Positions 1 to 11,816 of a DNA stretch of 64,000 bases are shown in pieces. The notes below the pieces were generated by a model, which saw only the letters and a program-made list of their open reading frames with translations, had not been told where the DNA came from and ran no database searches. The DNA lies in the IMG/VR virus record IMGVR_UViG_3300045971_000356, positions 1-64,000 of that record, one strand, 5' to 3'. Every line of letters begins with the position of its first letter. The first letter of the stretch is position 1. The translations under genes were made by a program, and so were the position numbers. Source of the stretch: a virus.

Positions 1-199
1 GCGGTCAATGTACCAACTATTACTACGTATCTCTAACCCGCCGCGGCTAGTATTCACGGGTAAAATGGTTCCGAATGAGGGAGACGGAACGCTTCAAATT
101 CATTTTTCGTCTGTGGTTAAACTCCACAGAGGCTTGATAATCAAGCGACTGCGGTCTGTTGCCCAATACGCAACTCTATTATAGAAACGAGATTCAATT

Positions 200-283
200 T
201 TGTGTTTAGCATATTAAGTAATGCGTCCCCGATATGGTGTAAGAACCTGAAGGTAGATCAAGCGGTGCAATTCCGCAGCACGA
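200..283 (+). ncRNA. tRNA-like RNA with enlarged, non-canonical anticodon region
   Basis: Acceptor-like TTGTGTT/AGCACGA, D-arm-like AGCATATTAAGTAATGC and T-arm GCGGTGCAATTCCGC. No clean 7-nt anticodon loop and no encoded CCA. Confidence 0.35.
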
Positions 284-293
284 ATTCAATTTT

Positions 294-348
294 AGGGTGC
301 CTACAGCAATTAACCTCTTTCAATCAAGAACCAAATGTGCACCCTGTT
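294..348 (+). ncRNA. TACAGCAA-motif structured RNA, copy 1
   Basis: AGGGTGC...GCACCCT stem enclosing TACAGCAA and followed by GTT. Same layout at 3462-3522. Confidence 0.45.
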
Positions 349-353
349 GTTTT

Positions 354-429
354 AGCCTTGTATTCGATCGTAGTCGAAGCCTCTATGACACGGAGGATAT
401 AGTTGGTTAGACTCCAACCTAGGCCACCA
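354..429 (+). tRNA. atypical tRNA-Val(GAC)
   Basis: Anticodon arm CCTCT-ATGACAC-GGAGG, T-arm GTTGG-TTAGACT-CCAAC, 3' ACCA. Imperfect acceptor stem. Confidence 0.55.
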
Positions 430-481
430 GTTTTATTAAGTTTCCAATAAATACATGGTTAGTCCTAACCATCAGGAACTT

Positions 482-1174
482 ATGAAAAAATTGTTAGTTT
501 TGCTTAGTTTATTTTTGGCAACTTCTGCAATAGCAGAGCCAAAAGTGTCAGTCTCACTTGGAAGCACTTTTGCCAATACACAACCTTCAGGTATTTGGTG
601 GCAGCAAGAATACTCAAGTAAGTTTACCCATAATGCTCCCTCATTCACCCTGAGAGTTGATAATAGAATATCAAATGGATGGAGTTATGGAGTGGGTTAT
701 GCTTACGTAGGTAATTTTCATTCAGACTCATTGGCAGTTAGTTCAGATCCTGCTTATGCGAGCGGATCGCCATGGCCACTTTCTCGATGGATTGGGAATC
801 AGAAAGTAGATGGAATATTTTTAGTAGGTCGCAAAACGATTGGAAAATGGTATATTGAAGCAGGTCCCATGCTAACTAAAACTTCATACTCAATGGATGT
901 TCCAGACTGGATCGGATCAAAAGATTGGCCTACTAACCTTGTTCCAGATACAGGTAATACGCGATTTTTACACGTTGGCACACCACGGCAGATGAAGGTA
1001 GAATTAATCGGTGGGGTAGGCTATAATATATCAGATAAATTATCTGTTCAGTTTACAGCATACCCAACTCGTGTATTAAATCCACAGCCAGAGGAGGTTG
1101 GCGAAAGTGCTGACACCGGACCAGGTATCCTTAAAGGTTACTCAGGTAACCTTTCGGTACTGTACACATTTTAG
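482..1174 (+). CDS. outer-membrane beta-barrel protein
   Basis: Signal peptide MKKLLVLLSLFLATSAIA, amphipathic strands (WSYGVGYAYVG, GGVGYNISDKLSVQF) and C-terminal ...LYTF BAM-type signature. Confidence 0.75.
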   Translation: MKKLLVLLSLFLATSAIAEPKVSVSLGSTFANTQPSGIWWQQEYSSKFTHNAPSFTLRVDNRISNGWSYGVGYAYVGNFHSDSLAVSSDPAYASGSPWPLSRWIGNQKVDGIFLVGRKTIGKWYIEAGPMLTKTSYSMDVPDWIGSKDWPTNLVPDTGNTRFLHVGTPRQMKVELIGGVGYNISDKLSVQFTAYPTRVLNPQPEEVGESADTGPGILKGYSGNLSVLYTF

Positions 1175-1266
1175 TCCTGTTAGTTTAGTGGCCCAGAACG
1201 CCATTCGCCACCCTCGGGTGACCGGTTCAAGTGGTAACGTAGGTTCGAATCCTGCACAGGACACCA
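1174..1266 (+). tRNA. tRNA-Glu(TTC)-like gene with ~19-nt insert in the anticodon loop
   Basis: Perfect acceptor GTCCTGT/ACAGGAC-ACCA and canonical T-arm. Anticodon stem GCCAT/GTGGT encloses an extra CACCC-TC-GGGTG hairpin before TTCAA. Confidence 0.6.
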
Positions 1267-1509
1267 AAGAATGCACAGCATCGCTTTATGCTGTGGCGGG
1301 ACGGCTTAAACTTCCGCGGAAGTGCTACGAAGTAGGACTAAGGTCGCCTCTCAAACCGCAATTAGAGTTCTCCGCAAGAGAACATAGCAACAGAATTTCA
1401 TCGCGTTAGACTTTTTAAAGATAAAAAGTCAAAATTTGAAAAAACATTTTGTTCTAGAGCTTGTTCGCTTAAAGGCAACAGAAAAGTTTCAGGACATAAT
1501 CAGTATTTA

Positions 1510-1585
1510 GCCCTGGTGACGGAACGGCATACGTGTTGGTCTTAGAAACCAAATTCTGGGAGTTCGAGTCTCCCCCGGGGCACCA
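1510..1585 (+). tRNA. tRNA-Leu(TAG)
   Basis: Cloverleaf, TTGGT-CTTAGAA-ACCAA, CCA, short variable region. Confidence 0.85.
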
Positions 1586-1590
1586 AATAT

Positions 1591-1693
1591 GGCGTGTGAG
1601 GTACGCGGGACGTCAAAGCGTATTTCTTAGTACATAGACAAAATATTGCGGCCGCGGTATGCGACTAGTATTAAGTTAACTCCAACGCCGCCA
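1591..1693 (+). ncRNA. CCA-terminated RNA of unknown class
   Basis: 5' GGCGT pairs with 3' ACGCC followed by G-CCA. The interior is not a cloverleaf. Confidence 0.35.
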
Positions 1694-1700
1694 ACTTTAT

Positions 1701-1792
1701 GGATAGTAATGCAGCGGGGTTGGTCCTGCGACGAGCCTTGAAAACTCGGTTCTTAGAAATAGGATGGGGTTCGACTCCTCTGCTATCCGCCA
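1701..1792 (+). tRNA. tRNA-Ser(TGA)
   Basis: GGATAGT/GCTATCC-GCCA, loop CTTGAAA, long variable arm. Confidence 0.85.
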
Positions 1793-1798
1793 ATTTTT

Positions 1799-1890
1799 GG
1801 AAGATGAAGACCAGACGGTTCTGGCACTTGTTTGGAAAACATGGGGGCGTCAAGAAGTCGCCCGGGGCTCAACTCCTCCTTCTTCCGCCA
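1799..1890 (+). tRNA. tRNA-Ser(GGA)
   Basis: GGAAGA/TCTTCC-GCCA, loop TTGGAAA, long variable arm. Confidence 0.8.
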
Positions 1891-1895
1891 AACAC

Positions 1896-1978
1896 GCAGA
1901 ATGTGTATAAACTACCCGTAAGGGTTTCTGGTAAGTGTGTCAGTTCGCCGGACACTACACTAACAAAATTCTGCGCCA
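1896..1978 (+). ncRNA. CCA-terminated RNA of unknown class
   Basis: Perfect 7-bp stem GCAGAAT/ATTCTGC plus G-CCA. No T-loop consensus inside. Confidence 0.4.
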
Positions 1979-2077
1979 ATTTAAGCAGAGCCTGACTGAA
2001 ACGGGCATCGAGTACGTGGAACGTGGAAGAAGGTTCGATTCCTTCATACTCAATTTCAGTCTGCTTATTAATTTTAT

Positions 2078-2152
2078 GGGTCTAGAACCAGTCAGCATGG
2101 GTGCCGCACTGCAAACGCGGATAACACGGGGCAGCACCGTGTAGGCCTTCCA
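2078..2152 (+). tRNA. tRNA-Cys(GCA)
   Basis: CCGCA-CTGCAAA-CGCGG, U73 discriminator plus CCA, non-canonical T-loop. Confidence 0.75.
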
Positions 2153-2160
2153 ATTTATTT

Positions 2161-2172
2161 CGGTGTATAGCG
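2161..2172 (+). pseudogene. 5' remnant of a tRNA-Pro
   Basis: CGGTGTATAGCG resembles a typical tRNA-Pro 5' end and stops just upstream of the HNH cassette. Only 12 nt. Confidence 0.4.
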
Positions 2173-2221
2173 ATGCTGATTTGGAAAAACTCGAATTAGT
2201 GTCGCTAGGATAAATAATAGT

Positions 2222-2701
2222 ATGGAAATCAAAATCATCAGCCCAGGATTAGCAGCAATGAATCAAAAAATTTGTTGCCGTTTTTGCAATAAAGAAACTA
2301 CAAAAGGAAATATAGCACGGCACGAAGAAGCATGCTATATCAATCCGGCAGTGAAAGTAGAATGTAAAGTGTGTGGTGAACCAATTAAGGATTACAAACA
2401 CTCAAAGGGCACTTGCTCTTATTCATGCTCTAATAAATTATTTCGTTCAGGATACGATAACGGTAACTGGAAAGGTGACAATTATCGTAACATAGCAAAA
2501 ATACATCATAATATGAGCTGTGTAGTATGTGGGGAAGGTAAAATTGTAGCAATACATCATTATGATGAAAATCATAACAATAATTCCCCAGACAATCTAA
2601 TTCCTTTATGTCCGACACATCATCAATATGTGCATAGTAGATTTAAAGAATTAGTAATAGACAAGATTAATACGTATCAACGTAATCTCCGATTCGCCTA
2701 G
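2222..2701 (+). CDS. HNH homing endonuclease with Zn fingers
   Basis: CVVCG...IHHYDENHNNNSPDNLIPLCPTHH. ATAAATA late promoter upstream. The 3' end overlaps tRNA-Pro. Confidence 0.85.
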   Translation: MEIKIISPGLAAMNQKICCRFCNKETTKGNIARHEEACYINPAVKVECKVCGEPIKDYKHSKGTCSYSCSNKLFRSGYDNGNWKGDNYRNIAKIHHNMSCVVCGEGKIVAIHHYDENHNNNSPDNLIPLCPTHHQYVHSRFKELVIDKINTYQRNLRFA

Positions 2702-2764
2702 CCTGGTATGGCACTTCGTTTGGGACGAAGAATAACGGGAGTTCAAATCTCTCATCGGAGACCA
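2687..2764 (+). tRNA. tRNA-Pro(TGG)
   Basis: CTCCGAT/ATCGGAG-ACCA, CTTCG-TTTGGGA-CGAAG. Confidence 0.9.
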
Positions 2765-2769
2765 ATTTT

Positions 2770-2846
2770 CTGTGTGTGGTGACAAGTGGACGTCGACCTG
2801 TTTTGGAAGCAGGAATATGCCGGTTCGAGGCCGGCCACACAGACCA
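2770..2846 (+). tRNA. tRNA-Pro(TGG), second divergent copy
   Basis: CTGTGTG/CACACAG-ACCA, CCTGT-TTTGGAA-GCAGG. Confidence 0.75.
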
Positions 2847-2850
2847 ACTT

Positions 2851-3444
2851 TTAGGATCGACACAAGTTTTTAAGTGTCAATGACCTCCAGTTTTCTAAAG
2901 CATGGAGTGGAAAATTACTTGCTGGTATCAGTGTAAACTCACTGAGATGTTGTATGAATATGGCAGGGGGCTGAAACATTAATTCTTGCCAACTAACAGA
3001 CAACAGCTGATGAGAGCTTTTTTGTGGTTTAAAATAAATATTATCAAATTCAATATCGGTAAATTTTTTGCCGTGCCCCTCGTCAATCGACCACTTACAA
3101 TAAAAAATTTGTCTTAACTTATCATAATCGTCGGCAGTGAATGTTATTTCAATGACTTTGCTAAAATACGTAGACAGTAACTGACAATCTGTCATATGAC
3201 ACGGAATATATTGCGTAATTTCTAATACTGGGTTTTCGAGTAATTTACTAATATGAATATTTGGTGCATAACCCACTCCAAGTACACTACCTTTATACCG
3301 ATCTTGTGGGAGGTAACATGCACTACCGCGTTTAGTGAACATTTTGAGCGGACATTGCTCTCTTGCAGCATATAAAAATGCTCCTAAGAACCGTCCACCA
3401 GTACCGCCCATGAAGCGAATAGGTATAATGTCAGATCGTATCAT
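2851..3444 (-). CDS. sulfotransferase/P-loop-like protein
   Basis: N-terminal FMGGTGGRFL loop and TAAATA promoter upstream. Confidence 0.45.
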   Translation of the reverse strand: MIRSDIIPIRFMGGTGGRFLGAFLYAAREQCPLKMFTKRGSACYLPQDRYKGSVLGVGYAPNIHISKLLENPVLEITQYIPCHMTDCQLLSTYFSKVIEITFTADDYDKLRQIFYCKWSIDEGHGKKFTDIEFDNIYFKPQKSSHQLLSVSWQELMFQPPAIFIQHLSEFTLIPASNFPLHALENWRSLTLKNLCRS

Positions 3445-3461
3445 AATGAGTATTTAGTTTT

Positions 3462-3522
3462 AGGATAGTTACAGCAACTCAAAAGCTAACTATGGTTGTC
3501 TAGCGACAAAAGCTATCCTGTT
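3462..3522 (+). ncRNA. TACAGCAA-motif structured RNA, copy 2
   Basis: AGGATAG...CTATCCT stem, TACAGCAA and trailing GTT. The stem covaries with copy 1. Confidence 0.45.
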
Positions 3523-3530
3523 ATATTTTA

Positions 3531-3566
3531 CTGCCTATAGCTCAATGGATAGTGCAGTAGCCTTCG
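3531..3566 (+). pseudogene. 5' half of interrupted tRNA-Arg(TCG)
   Basis: CTGCCTA TAGCTCAATGGATAGTGCA GTAGC CT TCG, then unrelated sequence. The matching 3' end is at 4282-4304. Confidence 0.8.
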
Positions 3567-3587
3567 ATATTGCATAAATAGATATAT

Positions 3588-3664
3588 GCGCCCGTAGCTC
3601 AACTGGATAGAGTACTCGGCTTCTACCCGAACTGTTGGGGGTTCAAGTCCCTCCGGGCGCACCA
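3588..3664 (+). tRNA. tRNA-Arg(TCT)
   Basis: GCGCCCG/CGGGCGC-ACCA, loop CTTCTAC. Confidence 0.9.
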
Positions 3665-3679
3665 ACAATAAGGTGTTTT

Positions 3680-4435
3680 ATGTTTACGTGCAAACATTGT
3701 AAAAAAGAATTTCTGGGATTATCTACAGCTAATAAAGCTAACCATTCAAGGTGGTGTTCAGAAAATCCTAAACGAGCTAGTTATACTGCACCACCAGAGT
3801 TAAACTCCCCTGAGGCAATTCAAAAACGAAACATTAGCATTAAAAAAGCCTGGGCTGATGGTAAGTATGACAACATTCTTAACAAAGGAAATCATGGTTA
3901 CAGACATACTGCGCAGTCTAAAGAAGCTATCAGTAAAAAAGCATTAGCATCTAAACATAGAAGGTTGGTAAGATCTGTCAGGGAATATACAACACGTGAC
4001 GGCACTAAAATTATGCTTGATTCATCTTGGGAAGAAGCATTGGCAATTAGATTAGATGAATTAAACATAAACTGGATAAGACCAGATATCCCAATTCCGT
4101 ATATTACTGCTGATGGTAAGACACATAATTATTTTCCGGACTTTTATTTGCCGGACTTTGATTTATATCTTGATCCAAAAAACCCAGCAGCAATAAATGC
4201 TCAGGCAGAAAAGTTATCTATTATTACAAAAATTATGCCAAACTTAGTGATAATAGGCAGTTTATTAGAATGCAATAACTATTCGATTCCTGGTGGGCGG
4301 ACCAAAGAATTTAAGAACAATAATAAGAATAATAAATACACATATTGCGTGGTTAGGTTAATGGTAAACTCAGACGTTGCCAACGTTTATACAGGGGTTC
4401 GATTCCCCTACCCCGCACCAAATTTTAGCTCTTGA
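3680..4435 (+). CDS. TnsA-like PD-(D/E)xK homing endonuclease with NUMOD3-like motif
   Basis: DSSWEEALAIRLD...IPY...HNYFPDFYLPDFDLYLDPK. The frame reads through a tRNA 3' remnant and tRNA-Gly. Confidence 0.8.
   Translation: MFTCKHCKKEFLGLSTANKANHSRWCSENPKRASYTAPPELNSPEAIQKRNISIKKAWADGKYDNILNKGNHGYRHTAQSKEAISKKALASKHRRLVRSVREYTTRDGTKIMLDSSWEEALAIRLDELNINWIRPDIPIPYITADGKTHNYFPDFYLPDFDLYLDPKNPAAINAQAEKLSIITKIMPNLVIIGSLLECNNYSIPGGRTKEFKNNNKNNKYTYCVVRLMVNSDVANVYTGVRFPYPAPNFSS
4282..4304 (+). pseudogene. 3' remnant of interrupted tRNA-Arg(TCG)
   Basis: TTCGATTCCTGG TGGGCGG ACCA. TGGGCGG pairs with CTGCCTA at 3531. Confidence 0.75.
4347..4420 (+). tRNA. tRNA-Gly(GCC)
   Basis: AGACG-TTGCCAA-CGTTT, T-arm, CCA. 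Confidence 0.85.
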
Positions 4436-4502
4436 AGCATTGACAGCGATGCACGGGTCTTGTAAGCCTGAGAGTGGAGTGCAAGTCTTCACAGGAGCAC
4501 CA
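4428..4502 (+). tRNA. tRNA-Thr(TGT)
   Basis: CGGGT-CTTGTAA-GCCTG, CCA. Confidence 0.8.
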
Positions 4503-4510
4503 ATACATAT

Positions 4511-4584
4511 AGCGGGTAGTGAAGCCAACAATCCAGTCTCATAAGCTCGGATCAACGGAGGTGCGAATCCTTCACCCGCTTCCA
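4511..4584 (+). tRNA. atypical tRNA-Met/Ile(CAT)
   Basis: AGCGGGT/ACCCGCT-TCCA, loop CTCATAA, weak D-arm. Confidence 0.6.
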
Positions 4585-4610
4585 GTTTTTAAACTAAGAA
4601 AGGAAATAGC

Positions 4611-5168
4611 GTGAACAAGTATCCACTCGTTTTAACGCTCGACTCAGCTGGTATACCACAACGTTGGTCTACTTGGGAAGAAGGCGTTTGTTACAAAGTA
4701 AAAGATTTGATTGCATGGTCTATCGGAGACGAAACCATCTACCGCGGAGGCAACTCACGGTTAACTGGCTTGCAATCAACTGTGTCAGTACCATCCATCG
4801 TGGCTATACGCTCAATGGGTCGCACAAAGAACCGTTCTGTGCCACTTACAAACAGGAACCTGTTTGGTCGTGACCGTAACCTTTGCTGCTACTGCGGTAC
4901 ACACATAAAGGACCATGACGCGACCCGTGATCACATTCAACCTGTGTCAAAGGGCGGAGCAAACACTTGGATGAATTGCGTTACCAGTTGTAAAAGTTGC
5001 AATAACTATAAAGACAACAAAACCTTACAACAAGCTGGTTTAGAATTGTTATATTTGCCATATATACCAAATAGGGCCGAAGCATTGATTATGTCAAATC
5101 GAAAGATTTTGGCAGATCAGATGGAATTTCTTGCAGCTCATTTGCCGGCACATAGTCGTCTAGTTTAA
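4611..5168 (+). CDS. HNH endonuclease
   Basis: RDRNLCCYCG...TRDHIQPVSKGG..TWMNCVTSCKSCNNYK. Confidence 0.9.
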   Translation: MNKYPLVLTLDSAGIPQRWSTWEEGVCYKVKDLIAWSIGDETIYRGGNSRLTGLQSTVSVPSIVAIRSMGRTKNRSVPLTNRNLFGRDRNLCCYCGTHIKDHDATRDHIQPVSKGGANTWMNCVTSCKSCNNYKDNKTLQQAGLELLYLPYIPNRAEALIMSNRKILADQMEFLAAHLPAHSRLV

Positions 5169-5937
5169 GACACTTTCCGTCTTTGTGTTTTCTAACATAC
5201 CAAGAGAATATGGTTTGTTTACTACAAAATTCGCATGTCACTGGCATGTTTGCTTTGTTAGATGAGCCATATTTTTCTAAATTTGTAGATTTAGTTTTAT
5301 CCCAATTGTTATAAGTTGTGGTACCATATTTTTCAAGTTTTGTCTGTGACGCTTGATTTGAGTTCACAAAAGTTTCTGAACCATATTTTTCAAGTTTTGT
5401 AGATTTAGTTTGAGTTGGATTACAATATCCAGCAACACCATATTTCTCAGTTTTAGTTTTTGCAATTTTTGCTTTAACTAATGGATTTCTAGAACCATTG
5501 TTTATAGACTGTTTCAGTTTAGTTTCGGCAGATGATTTTCTGCCGGTGTTAATTAGAATATTCGACTCGCGAGCAGCAGCTTTCATTATTGCAAATTGTC
5601 TTGAATTTGGATTTCTTTGTTGAAATTTAGTCTTTTGATAAAACGCGGTAATTGCTTTAAGCATTTGACTTTTCATACGTTTATTAGAAAACATTTTAGA
5701 TAAAAGTCTATGAGCAATAAAGTGTTCTCTGAAAGTAAACCTAATCACATTGCTCATGTCACGTTCGCCACCTAGTTTAAAACTTTTTGGCAGCATGTGA
5801 TGTTTTTCTGTGTATTCGGTTTGTGTGATTCTAGTGAGTCTAGATTCGCAAAGTTGCACATAAATATATGCATATTTTGATTTATTACTCAGTTCTAAAA
5901 TTTGAGATAGGTATTGGTTCATAATTGCTCCATACAT
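5089..5937 (-). CDS. HNH homing endonuclease with NUMOD-type repeats
   Basis: EKHHMLPKS...REHFIAHRLL and repeated T.LEKYG units. Confidence 0.85.
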   Translation of the reverse strand: MYGAIMNQYLSQILELSNKSKYAYIYVQLCESRLTRITQTEYTEKHHMLPKSFKLGGERDMSNVIRFTFREHFIAHRLLSKMFSNKRMKSQMLKAITAFYQKTKFQQRNPNSRQFAIMKAAARESNILINTGRKSSAETKLKQSINNGSRNPLVKAKIAKTKTEKYGVAGYCNPTQTKSTKLEKYGSETFVNSNQASQTKLEKYGTTTYNNWDKTKSTNLEKYGSSNKANMPVTCEFCSKQTIFSWYVRKHKDGKCLKLDDYVPANELQEIPSDLPKSFDLT

Positions 5938-5981
5938 TATTTATCCTTTTAATGGTGTGACTGCATGTAAAATAAAACAAT

Positions 5982-6055
5982 GCTCTTTTAGGTCAGTGAT
6001 AGACCAACTGTTTCGTAAGCAGTGAACGTGAGTTTGATTCTCACAGAGAGCACCA
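5982..6055 (+). tRNA. tRNA-Thr(CGT)
   Basis: ACTGT-TTCGTAA-GCAGT, CCA. Confidence 0.85.
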
Positions 6056-6062
6056 AAATTTT

Positions 6063-6154
6063 AGTGAGTTGGATGAGAGGTTTAAATCGGCACCCTGCTA
6101 AGGTGTTGTTCGTAGAAATACGGGCCGTGGGTTCAAATCCCACACTCACTGCCA
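6063..6154 (+). tRNA. tRNA-Ser(GCT)
   Basis: AGTGAGT/ACTCACT-GCCA, loop CTGCTAA, long variable arm. Confidence 0.9.
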
Positions 6155-6162
6155 GAATTTAT

Positions 6163-6238
6163 TGGGGGTTTGTCATTTGGTAATGACACTGCGCTTTGAC
6201 CGCAGGAAAGTCGGGTCCGATTCCCACACCCTCTGCCA
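6163..6238 (+). tRNA. tRNA-Gln(TTG)
   Basis: CTGCG-CTTTGAC-CGCAG, GCCA end. Confidence 0.8.
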
Positions 6239-6245
6239 AACAAAT

Positions 6246-6324
6246 GCGTCGGTCTTCTAATTGGCAAGATCTCAGACTCCAAATCTGAATGTTAATGAAG
6301 GTTCGAATCCTTCTCGGCGCGCCA
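6246..6324 (+). tRNA. tRNA-Trp(CCA)
   Basis: TCAGA-CTCCAAA-TCTGA, GCCA end. Confidence 0.85.
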
Positions 6325-6332
6325 AACAATAT

Positions 6333-6365
6333 TACTCAGTAGTTCAATTGGCAGAATAGCGGTCT
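6333..6365 (+). pseudogene. 5' half of interrupted tRNA-Trp
   Basis: TACTCAGTAGTTCAATTGGCAGAATAGCGGTCT stops at loop position 33 and is followed directly by TGTATAAATA. Confidence 0.75.
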
Positions 6366-6391
6366 TGTATAAATAAGTGTAAGGGACAAAT

Positions 6392-7009
6392 ATGCACTAC
6401 TTAATATACAGAATAACTAATCTAATCGACAATAAAATATACGTTGGAGCACATCAAACGAAAGATATTACTGATGGGTATATGGGTTCAGGAAAGCACT
6501 TGCGATATGCCATTAAAAAATATGGTGTTGAAAATTTTAAAAAAGATATATTGTTTGATTTTGACAACAAACAAGATATGTTTAATTCTGAGATAAGCAT
6601 TGTAAATGAAGATTTTGTTAAACGTCTCGACACGTATAATTTAAAAGTTGGAGGATCAGGTGGGAATCCAGGAATAATAGGGGCATTCACAGGAAAGAAA
6701 CATTCAGCTGAATCTAAGGAAAAGCAACGGCAAGCCTCGTTGTTACAGGTTACTACGGATGCAAAACGAATGAAAATATCAACACATAACGGCATGAAAA
6801 ATTCTGCAGAGGCTAGAAAGAAAGTTTCAGAGGCGTTAACTGGAAGAATATGTTCAGACGCACACAGAGCAAATGTTGCTAACGCGAATTTAGGAAAGAT
6901 TGTAGTAAATAACGGTCTAGTAAGTAAGAGAATTGTAAAAGAAGAAGAAACAAAATATCTTGAATCCGGATGGGTTAGAGGTATGTTAACAAAGAAAATG
7001 TATCGGTAG
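6392..7009 (+). CDS. GIY-YIG (Seg-like) homing endonuclease with NUMOD3
   Basis: [18 protein letters not shown]...GYMGSG...[12 protein letters not shown] and [11 protein letters not shown]. Confidence 0.9.
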
Positions 7010-7075
7010 CTCAATTGGCAGAGTGCTCGCCTCCAAAGCGAGAAGTTGAGGGTTCGACTCCTTCCCGGTACGCCA
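7000..7075 (+). tRNA. tRNA-Trp(CCA) overlapping the endonuclease stop codon
   Basis: GTATCGG/CCGGTAC-GCCA, CTCGC-CTCCAAA-GCGAG. Confidence 0.9.
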
Positions 7076-7089
7076 AAGACAATTTTGGT

Positions 7090-7164
7090 GTGGCTGTCGC
7101 CAAGTGGTAAGGCCCGAGGTTGTGATTCTCGTATGCGTGGGTTCGATCCCCACCAGTCACCCCA
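7090..7164 (+). tRNA. tRNA-His(GTG)
   Basis: CGAGG-TTGTGAT-TCTCG, C73-CCA. Confidence 0.9.
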
Positions 7165-7176
7165 AAATTGTTTTAA

Positions 7177-7253
7177 GCGCATGTAGACAAATTGGTAAAG
7201 TCAGCGGTCTTAGAAGCCGTTATCTGAGAGTTCGAGTCTCTCCTTGCGCACCA
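7177..7253 (+). tRNA. tRNA-Leu(TAG)
   Basis: GCGGT-CTTAGAA-GCCGT, short variable region. Confidence 0.85.
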
Positions 7254-7333
7254 AGAATTTACCGGGAGCAACTAATCATTGCCGCTATATGTCCATACCC
7301 TGTGGGTATAGTGCTTCCCGGTAAAACTAATTC

Positions 7334-7408
7334 ATCTCTGTAGTACAACGGATAGTACATAAGTTTGCGGAACTTAGGACGAAGGTTCGACTCCTTCCAG
7401 AGGTACCA
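7334..7408 (+). tRNA. tRNA-Arg(GCG)
   Basis: TAAGT-TTGCGGA-ACTTA, canonical T-arm, CCA. Confidence 0.85.
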
Positions 7409-7544
7409 ATATAAAATAGTATTATAACTGTACGAGAAGGATAAATATTATTAAGAGCTTCGAGCCGTGCCGTAATCGACATTACCCGGAACCCTGTTTT
7501 ACACAGCCGCCATTGGTAGCACTAACAGAAAAGGAGATCTTAAA

Positions 7545-8237
7545 ATGAGAACGCAACGTAAAATTTTAGTCGTCGACGACGATCCAGTAGTAGGCCGCAG
7601 TTTTGAGCGGGTACTAAAAAGCAAAGGCTATGCAGTTATTAACTGCTCAAACGGCAAAGACGCTTTAACAAAACTACAAAATGAGGAATATGACGCAGTA
7701 TTCACAGACTTAAAAATGTCTGGAATGGATGGACTTGAAGTAGCCACAAAGGTTAAAGCAAGCCAACCATGGATGCCAGTCGTAATCATCACGGGGTATG
7801 CAACACCAGCAGCAGAAACCCAGGCAGCAACGCTAGGGGTGCACACATTCATTCAGAAACCACTAAGCCCTTCGATGATTGAAGAAATGGCTGAAAACGC
7901 GATGAGTGAAAAAAATGCAGTGTTTGAACCAACCACAGCAGTAATTGATGCATTAGTTGCCACACATGAAGTTAAGAAAGAAAACTTTGCTCTTAATTTA
8001 GCATTGTTTTTGTCAGCACCATTCATTGGTTTGCTGTATGCACTTGCATTGCCGCTAGTTGGCTTTGCTATGCTTGCTTACCTTGGTTTCAAGGCAGCAG
8101 TAAAGAGCGAAAAAATACGCTTTTATGGCACTATAATCGCAGCACCATTTATTGGGCTAGTATTTGCAATAGCAATGCCTATTGCAGGATTAGGTACGCT
8201 AGCTTACGTAGGCGGGCAAGCTGCTTTTAAAAAGTAA
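7545..8237 (+). CDS. response-regulator receiver protein with C-terminal membrane helices
   Basis: KILVVDDD...FTDLKMSGMDG...IITGY...QKP followed by duplicated hydrophobic APFIGL segments. Confidence 0.9.
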   Translation: MRTQRKILVVDDDPVVGRSFERVLKSKGYAVINCSNGKDALTKLQNEEYDAVFTDLKMSGMDGLEVATKVKASQPWMPVVIITGYATPAAETQAATLGVHTFIQKPLSPSMIEEMAENAMSEKNAVFEPTTAVIDALVATHEVKKENFALNLALFLSAPFIGLLYALALPLVGFAMLAYLGFKAAVKSEKIRFYGTIIAAPFIGLVFAIAMPIAGLGTLAYVGGQAAFKK

Positions 8238-8256
8238 TTTAACCTAACTACTCCGC

Positions 8257-8284
8257 AACGGCACTTTTACGTGCCGTTTCTATT
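8257..8284 (+). terminator. intrinsic terminator
   Basis: AACGGCAC-TTTTAC-GTGCCGTT hairpin followed by a T-rich tail. Confidence 0.6.
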
Positions 8285-8319
8285 GCGACCACCAGTAAAA
8301 TATAGTAAACTATACAGTT

Positions 8320-8661
8320 ATGAACATCAATATAGACCCAGCGTTTTTAACATCAGTTACTATTCATAAAGAATGGAGCATGTTTGGGCATAAAACAGAG
8401 CTAACTGAAGATGAGCTAGTTAAAGTCCTTAAAAACGAGGATAAATGCTCGTCAATCTCAAGTGAAGATCACCCTGAGTTTGCGAAAGTAAGAGAACAGC
8501 TAGGTAAAGACGGATACATAGAAATACAACGCAGTTGGTGGAACGGCGATCGTGTAACGAAAGCATTTACATTTAACGGCGCAAAATTTAAAAAAGGTGA
8601 GCAATTTCCAAGTGGTTGTGCAATGGCAGGCTACTTAAAGTTCACTAAGAAAGTAAAATAA
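8320..8661 (+). CDS. hypothetical protein
   Basis: Clean ORF. Confidence 0.6.
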   Translation: MNINIDPAFLTSVTIHKEWSMFGHKTELTEDELVKVLKNEDKCSSISSEDHPEFAKVREQLGKDGYIEIQRSWWNGDRVTKAFTFNGAKFKKGEQFPSGCAMAGYLKFTKKVK

Positions 8662-8664
8662 TAA

Positions 8665-8742
8665 GCCACTGTAGGCAAATCGGAAAAGTCGGCTGTCTCA
8701 AAAGCAGTTATTCTGTGGGTTCGAATCCCACCAGTGGCACCA
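8665..8742 (+). tRNA. tRNA-Leu(CAA)
   Basis: GCTGT-CTCAAAA-GCAGT, GCCACTG/CAGTGGC-ACCA. Confidence 0.9.
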
Positions 8743-8765
8743 AAATCAATTCAGCTAAATACTAG

Positions 8766-9455
8766 ATGCTTAAATTTTTATCTAAACTGCTTAATAAACC
8801 GCTTTTTAAACAAGAAGAAGCAGGCCCAACTGTCATTGACGAAGTTCGCATGAATTTAGATGATAGAAAAGCGTGGCGCCGGAAGATGGTATACTCTGCA
8901 ATACGCGAAACAATGACATCAGTTGGTGTCGTTGGATCAACATACAGATTTAAGTTGTCACAAGTTGATGATCGTGGGCACATTTATGCAGTGATGATTG
9001 ACATAAAGAAAAGTTTCACAATAAATCCATTGTCACAAGTAAAAGGATTTTTGGGCATTGAAAAATTAATTGTAAAAACTGCATTTGACAAATATGGAAT
9101 CACTGTAACTTCAGTATACTGGAGAACAGTGGAAGAAAAAGTTAACAAGGTTATTAAGAAAACAGTGGAATTAAAATCAGTCCCACCTAAACTTAAAGAT
9201 ATAGAAGTCATTGACGACAAAGATTTTGGCCCAGTAAGCGAGTTTGAACGCGAGCAATTCATGCAAGCAATTACACTTGGTATGCGTCCCAAGCCGTTAA
9301 CTATAGACGACAAAGCGTATTACTCTGATGTAATGCCACTTGAGGCTGCAAAGAAAGCAGTAGAGATAGATTTTGACTTGTCAGTGCCTGGCATAGTCGC
9401 TAGCTCAATCCAGTATTCAACTCAGCCTGGTGAGTTAACCGCAAAAAACAAATAA
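8766..9455 (+). CDS. host-like conserved hypothetical protein
   Basis: RRKMVYSAIRETMTSVGVVGSTYRFK...VMIDI...VYWR resembles, from memory, a Comamonadaceae-type hypothetical family. Confidence 0.55.
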   Translation: MLKFLSKLLNKPLFKQEEAGPTVIDEVRMNLDDRKAWRRKMVYSAIRETMTSVGVVGSTYRFKLSQVDDRGHIYAVMIDIKKSFTINPLSQVKGFLGIEKLIVKTAFDKYGITVTSVYWRTVEEKVNKVIKKTVELKSVPPKLKDIEVIDDKDFGPVSEFEREQFMQAITLGMRPKPLTIDDKAYYSDVMPLEAAKKAVEIDFDLSVPGIVASSIQYSTQPGELTAKNK

Positions 9456-9457
9456 TC

Positions 9458-9536
9458 GCGCCGGTATGCCGCTAGTCTTCGAAACTAGAGAAAGCTAACT
9501 GGACACATGCACGTTCGACTCGTGTTCGGCGCACCA
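9458..9536 (+). tRNA. D-armless tRNA-like RNA with Arg(TCG) anticodon arm
   Basis: GCGCCGG/TCGGCGC-ACCA, CTAGT-CTTCGAA-ACTAG. Only about 7 nt where the D-arm should be, and a long variable region. Confidence 0.55.
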
Positions 9537-9544
9537 AAATTAAT

Positions 9545-9619
9545 GCCCAGTTTGCATAGTGGTATTGCGCTCGTTTGGTATGCGAGAGATCATTGGTTCG
9601 ATTCCAATACTAGGCACCA
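9545..9619 (+). tRNA. tRNA-Thr(GGT)
   Basis: CTCGT-TTGGTAT-GCGAG, CCA. Confidence 0.85.
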
Positions 9620-9626
9620 ATATTAC

Positions 9627-9701
9627 GCCCAGGTAGCTCAGAGGAAGAGCAACGCTCCTACAAAGCGAAGGTCGAGATTTCGAAATTCTCCTTGGGCACC
9701 A
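9627..9701 (+). tRNA. tRNA-Val(TAC)
   Basis: GCCCAGG/CTTGGGC-ACCA, loop CCTACAA (C33). Confidence 0.75.
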
Positions 9702-9706
9702 AATAT

Positions 9707-9781
9707 CTCGCTATAGTACAATGGAAAGTGCGGGAGTTTCCTAAACTCTAAATGGGAGTTCGATTCTTCCTAGCGGGACCA
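9707..9781 (+). tRNA. tRNA-Arg(CCT)
   Basis: GGAGT-TTCCTAA-ACTCT, CCA. Confidence 0.85.
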
Positions 9782-9895
9782 CAGTAACAAATTTTAAAAG
9801 AGAGAAAGAAATGAAACACACTGACAAACGTTAGTGTCGTCGCAAGCCCCGTGTAGGTTCTGTGATGGCACGTAAAAGAAATTTTATACACATCA

Positions 9896-9970
9896 CCATT
9901 CTAAACTTTGATAGTGAAGTCCGGCCTCTTAAGCCGAGAGAACTCAGTGCGATTCTGAGAGAGTGGACCA
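9896..9970 (+). tRNA. tRNA-Lys(CTT)
   Basis: CCATTCT/AGAGTGG-ACCA, loop CTCTTAA. Confidence 0.75.
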
Positions 9971-9975
9971 TACAC

Positions 9976-10052
9976 GGATTGTTAGTTTAACGGTTAAAAC
10001 ATCTCCCTTTTAAGGAGTAAGACTCCGGGTTCGAATCCCGGGCGATCCACCA
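9976..10052 (+). tRNA. tRNA-Lys(TTT)
   Basis: CTCC-CTTTTAA-GGAG, canonical T-arm, CCA. Confidence 0.9.
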
Positions 10053-10123
10053 TATTAAAACACATTTTCTGAAACGTGAGAGCCTGTTTGCCGGTGCAGA
10101 GTAGGTCAGTGTGTTTTAATATG
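10051..10123 (+). ncRNA. long-stem cassette between two tRNAs
   Basis: CATATTAAAACAC...GTGTTTTAATATG inverted repeat. Confidence 0.5.
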
Positions 10124-10197
10124 GTGATATAGCATAGACAGATATGCAGGGGTCTCATAAGCCTCACAGGAAGGAGCGTTGCCTTCTATCACCACCA
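10123..10197 (+). tRNA. tRNA-Met(CAT)
   Basis: GGTGATA/TATCACC-ACCA, loop CTCATAA, non-canonical T-loop. Confidence 0.75.
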
Positions 10198-10208
10198 GTA
10201 AATACTTA

Positions 10209-11816
10209 ATGCGATTATGGTTTTTAATCTTTTTAGCACTCACATTGCTACCTGCTTACGCTCAAGACACGAGCCAACCGCAGGTAGTTTTTTCTGCGAT
10301 TAAAGATACTGACCAGCCCATTGAAGTACAGATGGAGACAGCAAGAGAGGCACTTAGGAACAATGACTTTGATACAGCAATAACCATACTGAATACAGTG
10401 CTGCTACTACCTAACAATAAGTTTACACAAGAGGCGCAAGCCCGCATTGGATTTGCGTACGAGAGATCTAAAAAGTACTCTAAAGCAATAGGCGAGTATA
10501 ACGCTTACATTGCCATGTATCCCAACAGCGGCATAGTGGAGTCAATGCGTAGGCGTTTACTGGCGCTTGAGATTTTAACGCCACAGCACGATGTAGCAAA
10601 AGCAATACCCGATGGACCGCGACAAATAAAAGAGCATAAAGTGGAAGCATCGAGCTCTACTTATTACATTGCTTCAGGTACTGACTCAACCTTGATTTCC
10701 AATGTACATGCGAACGGTGTGTTCAAAGATAATGAATACACTACAAAAGTAGTAGTGCGAGAAAATGTACACACTGACATTAAACCTAAAGTTGAATCTA
10801 AATACACGCTCAACACTGCCACTGTTGAAATTGAAAACAGTTATAAAGACTGGGAATTAAAACTTGGACGACAATCTTCTGATTACGGTGTAATGTCTAA
10901 GTTTGATGGTATAGCTGCAACGTATGGGTACGGGCACGACACTGAGTACACCTTAGTGCTCGGACAGCCATTAATGAACAATGCAACATCATCACGTAAA
11001 ATGTTTGGTCTTCACACTCACTTTAACTTAGGTGAGTTTACGTCAGCCACTGCATACTACAACCACCAAACTGCTGACAATTTTGAAGAGCGCTCAGCAT
11101 TGGGCACAGAGTTTAGGTACTTTAAGAACGAACTATCCGTGACAGCAGCAGCAGAGTACGACATAGCATATCAGCAACTAAACTCAGTGACATTTAACGC
11201 TCATAAAGACAACAACTCTAATAGATGGTTTGTGCTATACGATCGCAGAAAGTCTCCTGTGCTGTATGCCGACAAGGCGTTGGCACTGGGGTTGTTTAAC
11301 GGAGCAAACATGCCATATAATTCTATTGCAGAGGCATTAGCAAGGTCTGGTATGACAGCAAGCGAGTTGCGTGATTACATTGTGTCAGAAACAGCAGTGT
11401 CGTCAACATTTGCAATAGGTGGAGCAATAGCAGTAAACACATGGACCTTAGGTGGTGATATACAATCTGCAACAATGACAGGAACTGGTACCGAGCCGCA
11501 GTCATCTAAGATTAACTCAATATCGTTAAACGCATTTAACCCGAATGCTTTTCTAAAGCATTCAGTTAACGCTATTGTATCTTACTCTACGTCAGAAAAC
11601 GGTATATATACATTGACATTGTTAGACAGCACCGATATAGCAAAAATAAGATTAGACACTACTGCTCGTATTACTAACAAACAAAACAAACTATTATCGT
11701 TTAGTACACATCATAAACTGACTAAGGATGCGTTTTTAGAACTTCAACTTATGCTAAGTAAGATACGAGACGAGATAGACAAAACATTTATTTTAGGGTT
11801 TAGATATGAGTTTTAG
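10209..11816 (+). CDS. TPR-domain plus large beta-barrel outer-membrane protein (putative porin of a porin-cytochrome conduit)
   Basis: Signal peptide ending ...PAYA, TPR helices (EAQARIGFAYERSKKYSKAIGEYNAYIAMYP), many amphipathic strands and C-terminal LGFRYEF. Confidence 0.8.
   Translation: MRLWFLIFLALTLLPAYAQDTSQPQVVFSAIKDTDQPIEVQMETAREALRNNDFDTAITILNTVLLLPNNKFTQEAQARIGFAYERSKKYSKAIGEYNAYIAMYPNSGIVESMRRRLLALEILTPQHDVAKAIPDGPRQIKEHKVEASSSTYYIASGTDSTLISNVHANGVFKDNEYTTKVVVRENVHTDIKPKVESKYTLNTATVEIENSYKDWELKLGRQSSDYGVMSKFDGIAATYGYGHDTEYTLVLGQPLMNNATSSRKMFGLHTHFNLGEFTSATAYYNHQTADNFEERSALGTEFRYFKNELSVTAAAEYDIAYQQLNSVTFNAHKDNNSNRWFVLYDRRKSPVLYADKALALGLFNGANMPYNSIAEALARSGMTASELRDYIVSETAVSSTFAIGGAIAVNTWTLGGDIQSATMTGTGTEPQSSKINSISLNAFNPNAFLKHSVNAIVSYSTSENGIYTLTLLDSTDIAKIRLDTTARITNKQNKLLSFSTHHKLTKDAFLELQLMLSKIRDEIDKTFILGFRYEF

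Follow-up and report, generated by a model that had tools for sequence, protein, structure and literature searches.

In the usual view, homing endonucleases invade essential genes only under cover of an intron or an intein, which hides the damage, and otherwise stay between genes. The transfer RNA (tRNA) array of a viral record in IMG/VR, IMGVR_UViG_3300045971_000356, raises the question of whether a homing element can also occupy an RNA gene and offset the damage with a full spare copy of it, as seems to have happened here. The stretch analysed, hereafter the window, comprises the first 64 kb (positions 1 to 64,000) of this 166-kb record, whose CheckV completeness of 47% indicates that the source is probably a jumbo phage. 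A same-strand tRNA array spans window positions 1174-10194, and at least five endonuclease-type genes, whose open reading frames (ORFs) stand alone, are scattered through it. In a first-pass annotation made from the sequence alone, a pattern was described three times in this array, in which an intronless homing cassette would have broken a tRNA gene and brought a complete tRNA for the same amino acid. Comparison with other viral contigs (designated L followed by a number) upholds this pattern for the Arg and Trp cases and removes the Pro case.

The Arg and Trp loci are therefore probably free-standing "break and replace" homing cassettes lying inside a tRNA gene of the same identity (the victim), which they would have entered at the anticodon loop. 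Each cassette would carry its own putative T4-type late promoter, together with a nuclease gene and a complete tRNA gene (the cargo), and each nuclease family is tightly linked to one tRNA identity. This interpretation is supported by the recurrence of the arrangement in many unrelated contigs, by the differences between the victim alleles, by the presence of intact victims elsewhere, and by halves that pair mutually and not with the cargo.

The Arg cassette within a split tRNA-Arg(UCU) gene

The Arg locus is composed of the following features:

3531..3565, + strand: 5' half (positions 1-35) of a broken resident tRNA-Arg(UCU), ending CTTC inside the anticodon
3573..3580, + strand: T4-type late-promoter-like motif CATAAATA (putative promoter), left end of the cassette, 7 nucleotides (nt) before the cargo tRNA
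3588..3664, + strand: complete cargo (replacement) tRNA-Arg(UCU) (ARAGORN; Rfam tRNA 60.9 bits)
3680..4435, + strand: PD-(D/E)XK homing-type nuclease gene, with a conserved part (3680-4288, 203 amino acids) and an unconserved read-through tail (4289-4435)
4282..4304, + strand: 3' remnant of the broken tRNA-Arg(UCU), consisting of the T-loop, the 3' strand of the T-stem, the 3' strand of the acceptor stem and ACCA

The acceptor strand of the 5' half (CTGCCTA) and that of the 3' remnant (TGGGCGG, 4292-4298) pair in 7/7 positions, including two G-U pairs, and on this pairing the two pieces are read as the two ends of one tRNA-Arg(UCU) gene. The first-pass annotation had already recognised a split tRNA-Arg, with a TCG anticodon and a 5' piece one base longer. 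As the break lies after C35 (anticodon base 35), the G at 3566 belongs to the insert, and the TCG call arose because this first base of the insert had been counted as part of the anticodon. Positions 36-53 of the victim (18 nt) are gone, replaced by 715 nt (3567-4281) with CATAAATA, the cargo tRNA and the nuclease ORF, and the 3' remnant begins where the nuclease homology stops.

The identity of the victim was established from intact genes in other contigs. A tRNA-Arg(TCT) at L188:11408-11482 has an acceptor stem identical to that of the victim and matches its 5' and 3' pieces in 32/35 and 21/23 positions, a copy in L165 matches them in 33/35 and 21/23, and the 20-mer of the victim's D-arm and anticodon arm is followed by TCT in 65 viral contigs. 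These observations show that the victim was a tRNA-Arg(UCU). An exact 29-mer of the fragment ending in G had no match in the viral contigs, and matches appeared once the victim was read as TCT. Assigning the isotype from the first 33 nt of the fragment alone was discarded as ambiguous, the best match being a tRNA-Met. The differences between victim and cargo are concentrated in the anticodon and acceptor stems. The cargo is the sole tRNA-Arg(UCU) of the 166-kb record, in whose long ORFs AGA accounts for 22% of the Arg codons.

Recurrence of the Arg cassette in other viral contigs

We found 80 loci homologous to the Arg nuclease in viral contigs; the counts below refer to 59 non-redundant loci, and the flank tests to the 34 with an upstream tRNA-Arg(TCT). 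In 34/59 loci this tRNA precedes the nuclease, in the same orientation, by at most 200 nt; another tRNA is found there in 3/59 and none was called in 22/59, while 17 kinds of neighbour occur on the downstream side. In most loci the cargo tRNA is itself preceded by a tRNA 5' half; many of these halves end CTTC followed by A or G, others are decayed or shifted by 1-2 bases, and after the half come a T-rich stretch and TATAAATA. The (T)ATAAATA motif precedes the cargo tRNA in 28/34 loci, mostly ending 6-11 nt before it (mode 7). When compared with the first 33 nt of 564 tRNAs, the fragments reach a mean score of 17.7, against a mean of 11.3 and a maximum of 14 for control segments, and most of their best matches are Arg tRNAs.

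In many loci a 3' remnant stands directly after the conserved end of the ORF, extending from the full T-arm to the acceptor strand alone. The acceptor strand of the fragment pairs 7/7 with an NCCA-ending remnant after the nuclease in 10/34 loci, compared with 2.5% of permuted locus pairs, so the flanks belong to one tRNA distinct from the cargo. Since these ten loci present eight different acceptor stems, different tRNA-Arg alleles were hit, and because the flanking halves never match the acceptor stem of the cargo, its simple duplication is ruled out.

When the flanks of cassette loci were compared, everything recovered was a duplicate except for one informative pair, L064 and L120, which are syntenic contigs with flanks 94% identical. 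In the same slot after tRNA-Lys, L064 carries a fragment, the promoter motif, a tRNA-Arg and a PD-(D/E)XK nuclease of the window type, and L120 carries another, intact tRNA-Arg(TCT) followed by a Vsr/DUF559-like nuclease (L120:8551-9573, 303 amino acids) with a similar N-terminal Cys/His finger. Such occupation of one slot by different units shows directly that cassettes turn over at a tRNA-Arg site. In addition, the cargo tRNA types cluster only in part on the nuclease tree, and the sister nucleases of L031 and L033 carry different types, indicating that the cargo can be exchanged.

Several other particularities were observed among these loci. Five contigs (L037, L083, L085, L101 and L103) hold tRNA-Arg(UCU)-like genes about 110 nt upstream of the nuclease start that were missed by ARAGORN; their parts follow each other as acceptor strand, anticodon arm with CTTCTAA, D-arm-like piece, T-arm and CCA, an order that looks rearranged. 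In L033, a GIY-YIG gene (L033:3640-3912) directly follows the PD-(D/E)XK cassette and is preceded by a second junction composed of CTTCA, a T-rich stretch and TATAAATA, so that one junction module seems to serve two nuclease families. The nuclease homologues at L050:3001-3615 and L086:3001-3588 contain an in-frame stop in the aligned region while their flanking tRNA halves still pair perfectly, and these genes may be decaying copies. An in-frame stop is also present in six other loci, where the alignment may simply pass the true stop.

The nuclease of the Arg cassette

Nearly all the homologues match the window protein only from residue 1 to about residue 203. The window ORF continues through 48 unconserved codons (4289-4435) across the tRNA-Arg remnant and the whole of a tRNA-Gly(GCC) gene (4347-4420), and has therefore lost its usual stop. 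The conserved protein combines an N-terminal Cys/His finger and NUMOD-like helices with a C-terminal nuclease. Across 43 aligned sequences, the residues that never vary include C4, C7, H22 and C26, in the zinc-finger-like N-terminus, and D154, D165, P166 and K167; E118 is nearly invariant.

The AlphaFold (AF2) model has a mean predicted local distance difference test score (pLDDT) of 90. The best fold match of its C-terminal domain is TnsA (Foldseek probability 1.0, E 1e-2; Z 9.2, root-mean-square deviation 3.3 over 114 residues), and it also resembles Vsr (Z 6.8), VRR-NUC, I-Bth0305I (Z 6.1), Bax1 and Hjc. On this structural model, the nuclease is assigned the PD-(D/E)XK fold, with an invariant D...D-x-K motif. 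The label "TnsA-like" given earlier is thus appropriate at the level of the fold. Orthology with TnsA was rejected, as the conserved protein has 203 amino acids, the match is limited to the catalytic domain and the neighbours are tRNA genes. A sequence search of the PDB returned no match. The family has one match, annotated as hypothetical, among 50,697 GenBank phage records, and nine in 185,579 species genomes, all on contigs of metagenome bins. The analysis thus defines a nearly uncultured family of PD-(D/E)XK homing nucleases whose target would be predictable.

The Trp cassette and its GIY-YIG nuclease

The second locus presents a different nuclease family in a comparable arrangement:

6246..6324, + strand: complete tRNA-Trp(CCA) with an 8-nt variable loop (ARAGORN; Rfam 47.5 bits), 8 nt upstream of the Trp fragment
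6333..6365, + strand: 5' half (positions 1-33) of a broken tRNA-Trp, ending after U33
6368..6375, + strand: late-promoter-like motif TATAAATA (putative promoter), left end of the cassette
6392..7009, + strand: SegB-like GIY-YIG homing endonuclease gene, 205 amino acids (phrog_314, E 7.7e-42; NUMOD3)
7000..7075, + strand: complete tRNA-Trp(CCA) downstream of the GIY-YIG gene (ARAGORN; Rfam 62.9 bits)

This case stands as it was first described, namely a tRNA-Trp 5' half cut at the anticodon loop, followed by a GIY-YIG gene and a full tRNA-Trp lying over its stop; the additional tRNA-Trp at 6246-6324 had been missed. The fragment matches an intact tRNA-Trp(CCA) at L005:1096-1171 in 31/33 positions, with 29/29 over 6337-6365, the next best tRNA-Trp reaching 24/33 and the two adjoining full tRNA-Trp genes just 23/33 and 19/33. 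It scores 30 against tRNA 5' halves, compared with a median of 11 over the 32 motifs compared in the window. The stop codon of the ORF is formed by U8-A9-G10 (TAG) of tRNA-Trp 7000-7075. Directly after the break at U33 stands TGTATAAATAA, and the window holds no 3' remnant of the Trp victim.

Over 282 nt, the nuclease gene is 68% identical at the nucleotide level to segB of T4-like phages, and its product retains Y17 and G19, the catalytic Tyr and Gly that are essential in SegB of phage T6 (PMC13096335). In L006, a nuclease 60% identical to that of the window occurs in the same layout, with a fragment cut at the same base, the junction TGTATAAATAA, and a full downstream tRNA-Trp with the same ORF/tRNA overlap. 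The L006 fragment derives from a different Trp allele, its best matches being other tRNA-Trp genes (24/25 to the tRNA-Trp of L043). Two victim alleles sharing one junction argue for a site-specific entry rather than a random scar. In more distant clades of the family, tRNA-Met fragments lie upstream and a full tRNA-Met downstream (L071 and L066), and in more than 10 contigs the upstream element is a permuted transfer-messenger RNA (tmRNA) gene of which a truncated copy of the beginning is present, and the downstream one is a full tmRNA, the two copies being 46/55 identical in L009.

In the tmRNA clade (viral contigs L009-L027), the SegB-like genes overlap the start of the permuted tmRNA by 40-50 nt, and the truncated upstream copy terminates, immediately ahead of an ATAAATA motif, in a perfect hairpin formed from the T-loop sequence.

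The HNH gene beside tRNA-Pro

The third locus was evaluated in the same manner:

2161..2172, + strand: the claimed 12-nt tRNA-Pro-like stub, indistinguishable from chance
2222-2701, + strand: HNH gene (phrog_1271, E 2.3e-11)
2687-2764 and 2770-2846, + strand: two tandem resident tRNA-Pro(TGG) genes

The HNH ORF does stop in the TAG of tRNA-Pro 2687-2764, as had been noted. The stub, taken earlier for the relic of a broken tRNA, does not hold: the local alignment of the region around 2161 to tRNA 5' halves scores 14.0, while shuffled sequences average 13.3, with 15.75 as their 95th percentile. All eight loci homologous to the HNH gene have a tRNA-Pro(TGG) about 95 nt upstream of the gene, which links this family to tRNA-Pro. 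A relative (L003:5756-5925) has the same tRNA-Pro tandem, with 76% identity over 170 nt, without an HNH gene upstream. The tRNA-Pro was consequently rejected as the cargo of an HNH cassette, on the grounds of the chance-level stub and of this tandem. The HNH gene is an ordinary intergenic insertion with no demonstrable victim, and the tRNA-Pro genes are residents.

A possible route of entry and its alternatives

The established double-strand-break repair pathway of T4-type homing (PMC2330249; PMC2988022) suggests how the Arg and Trp cassettes could have spread. The nuclease would cut the uninterrupted tRNA gene of a co-infecting phage that lacks the cassette, and the cut ends would be resected. 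The 5' half and 3' remnant that the donor retains, along with conserved regions of the tRNA, could then serve as homology arms and pair with the two sides of the break, and synthesis from the cassette-bearing genome would copy promoter, tRNA and nuclease into the break. The recipient would be left with a dead tRNA split around the cassette and with a working spare that keeps decoding intact; for this, the cargo tRNA would have to escape cutting, and it is presumably resistant. As phages differ in the gene order of their tRNA arrays, a cassette whose homology is limited to the tRNA itself would be portable.

A broader generalisation is more doubtful, although in our judgement it falls only a little short of an even chance. 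There may exist in phages a large and so far undescribed class of cassettes made of an endonuclease and a tRNA, every one of them specific for a single tRNA identity, that enter the resident gene at the anticodon loop and substitute a cut-resistant copy of their own. With the tRNA halves as portable homology arms, such cassettes would hop between otherwise unrelated tRNA arrays and be a main vehicle of tRNA spread and turnover, for example of tRNA-Arg(UCU). If the proposed mechanism is true, it provides a concrete route for the gain, swap and loss of tRNA genes in phage arrays, and would explain both the frequent location of tRNA-Arg(UCU) beside a nuclease gene and the tRNA debris found in these arrays.

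Several observations weigh against the break-and-replace interpretation. The first-pass annotation had suggested comparing the loci with relatives; intact victim alleles do exist in other contigs, but no empty site for the window Arg and Trp cassettes was found in a close relative, the nearest contigs being about 60% identical in protein. The ORF flanking the Arg cassette (2851-3444) has no relatives in the metagenome collection, and 0/65 contigs with intact alleles are syntenic with the window. The T4 SegB endonuclease cuts at the tRNA 3' end, after the T-arm, so the break point need not be the cut site, and the break in the anticodon loop may mark a repair junction instead. The loss of the stop codon and the 48-codon read-through across tRNA-Gly make the activity of the window Arg nuclease uncertain. 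In addition, the different cargoes of the sister nucleases of L031 and L033 show that nuclease and tRNA are not rigidly co-inherited, and a further full tRNA-Trp (6246-6324) beside the Trp fragment means that a spare is not strictly needed there.

The reservation about the cut site leads to the strongest competing explanation, in which ordinary intergenic homing genes cut elsewhere, for instance in the T-arm or at the 3' end as T4 SegB does, the fragments being scars left by imprecise repair where the array is prone to recombination, and the full tRNA being linked by proximity only. SegB recognises the T-arm and cleaves after CCAR, the Arg cassette has right-hand junctions that differ from locus to locus, and the break in the tmRNA clade lies in the T-arm, all of which would fit. 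Scars of this kind would nevertheless have to account for a left junction that recurs despite differing alleles (many Arg fragments end CTTC, and both Trp fragments end after U33), for the agreement in isotype between fragment and adjacent full gene in two Trp and two Met loci, with the tmRNA loci pairing likewise, and for a tRNA-Arg(TCT) as the upstream neighbour in 34/37 loci that have a tRNA there. We therefore regard this explanation as unlikely. Somewhat less probable still is local duplication followed by decay, that is, a SegB-type amplification of a tRNA-plus-nuclease unit that later collapsed, with nothing having invaded and the full tRNAs being the original residents. In phage T6, SegB does drive tandem amplification both of its own gene and of the tRNA next to it (PMC13096335), and two full tRNA-Trp genes and a fragment lie within 830 nt of the window. 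However, the Trp fragment is closer to an allele in another contig (31/33) than to these neighbours (23/33 and 19/33), the Arg flanks pair mutually and have an acceptor stem unlike that of the cargo, and no partial nuclease copies are present.

The break position also recalls the endonuclease-bearing group I introns that sit in the anticodon loops of bacterial tRNA genes, according to the account in PMC3984707, and a split tRNA could in principle still be functional, with the cassette acting as an intron or the halves being joined in trans, so that no gene was destroyed. This seems very improbable to us, as a search of window 1-11000 for group I and group II introns gave no match even at E up to 1, the Arg victim is without positions 36-53 and the Trp victim without any 3' half, and the remnants in other loci vary in extent between the complete T-arm and no more than the acceptor strand. 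A group I intron proper was rejected for the lack of an intron family match and of 18 nt of tRNA body. On balance, break and replace by a homing cassette remains the probable explanation of the Arg and Trp loci.

Other features of the tRNA array

ARAGORN predicts 22 tRNAs in the 166-kb record, every one of them within the window, and Rfam adds several weak tRNA-like bodies. Besides the nuclease genes described above, the array contains two others:

4611-5168, + strand: HNH_5 gene
5089-5937, - strand: phrog_655 homing endonuclease gene

These two genes run towards each other, with an 80-nt overlap of their 3' ends, and no tRNA fragment was seen beside either. At the DNA level no GenBank phage is close to this region, a megablast search of GenBank phages with window 2100-7500 returning nothing near-identical. 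The identity of about 60% to the nearest contigs was measured in the protein of a flanking response-regulator gene, and the tRNA order in these contigs differs from that of the window. This gene (7545-8237), located within the phage tRNA array, encodes a receiver-domain protein (Pfam E 2e-27) and is kept in the three nearest contigs.

Two long tRNA-like bodies (1701-1788 and 1799-1886) escape ARAGORN and match tRNA-Sec only weakly, with sub-threshold scores of 30-33 bits; the former is conserved, being 90% identical to L120:116-206 in a contig that is otherwise unrelated. At 1174-1266, ARAGORN predicts a 93-nt tRNA-Gly(ACC) whose anticodon region contains a long insert.

Comparison with known systems

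The closest known relative of the Trp cassette nuclease is SegB of T4, a free-standing GIY-YIG homing endonuclease that cuts tRNA genes at the 3' end and homes in the T4 tRNA cluster (PMC2330249), co-converting neighbouring tRNAs (PMC2330249; PMC13096335). SegB homologues are enriched next to tRNAs, without isotype preference, and the adjacent tRNA is amplified (PMC13096335). The window GIY-YIG protein is a SegB homologue (phrog_314) that likewise lies in a tRNA array, behind a late-promoter motif. In contrast, SegB has been described between intact tRNA genes, cutting at their 3' ends, whereas the window Trp victim is broken after U33; neither SegB paper (PMC2330249; PMC13096335) reports a truncated victim upstream together with a full downstream tRNA of the same isotype that provides, in its TAG, the stop of the ORF.

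For the Arg cassette, the nearest parallel in position is I-Ssp6803I, a PD-(D/E)XK homing endonuclease in a group I intron of the anticodon loop of Synechocystis tRNA-fMet (Bonocora and Shub, 2001, as cited in PMC3984707; PDB 2OST). Both are PD-(D/E)XK homing nucleases in an element lodged in a tRNA anticodon loop, but there a self-splicing intron restores the tRNA, whereas the window has no ribozyme and a whole spare tRNA gene instead. The two proteins show no sequence match and a weak fold match (Z 4.0, compared with 9.2 for TnsA). TnsA of Tn7 (PDB 1T0F/1F1Z), in turn, shares the PD-(D/E)XK core with the Arg nuclease. The latter is without the TnsA C-terminal domain, the TnsB/C partners and transposon ends, and has the N-terminal zinc-finger/NUMOD-like DNA-binding part typical of homing endonucleases.

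The logic of the arrangement is best matched by the mORFs of fungal mitochondria (Allomyces, Glomus), which form gene hybrids in atp6, atp9, cox2 and nad3 (PMC3630166). In these, an endonuclease ORF carries a foreign copy of the displaced gene part and the native part persists as an unexpressed relic, following the same break-and-replace scheme. The mORFs affect organellar protein genes, whose C-terminal part is replaced in frame, whereas here phage RNA genes would be replaced as a whole and with a putative promoter of their own. The combination of a nuclease, a foreign gene copy and a native relic is found at both window loci, with two flanking halves in the Arg case and a 5' half in the Trp case. 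Our literature search found no description of a truncated tRNA and a replacement tRNA beside a phage endonuclease. Therefore, even though the action of SegB on tRNA genes, the presence of an intron-borne PD-(D/E)XK nuclease in an anticodon loop and the logic of the mORFs are all known, break and replace as applied to phage tRNA genes appears to be new.

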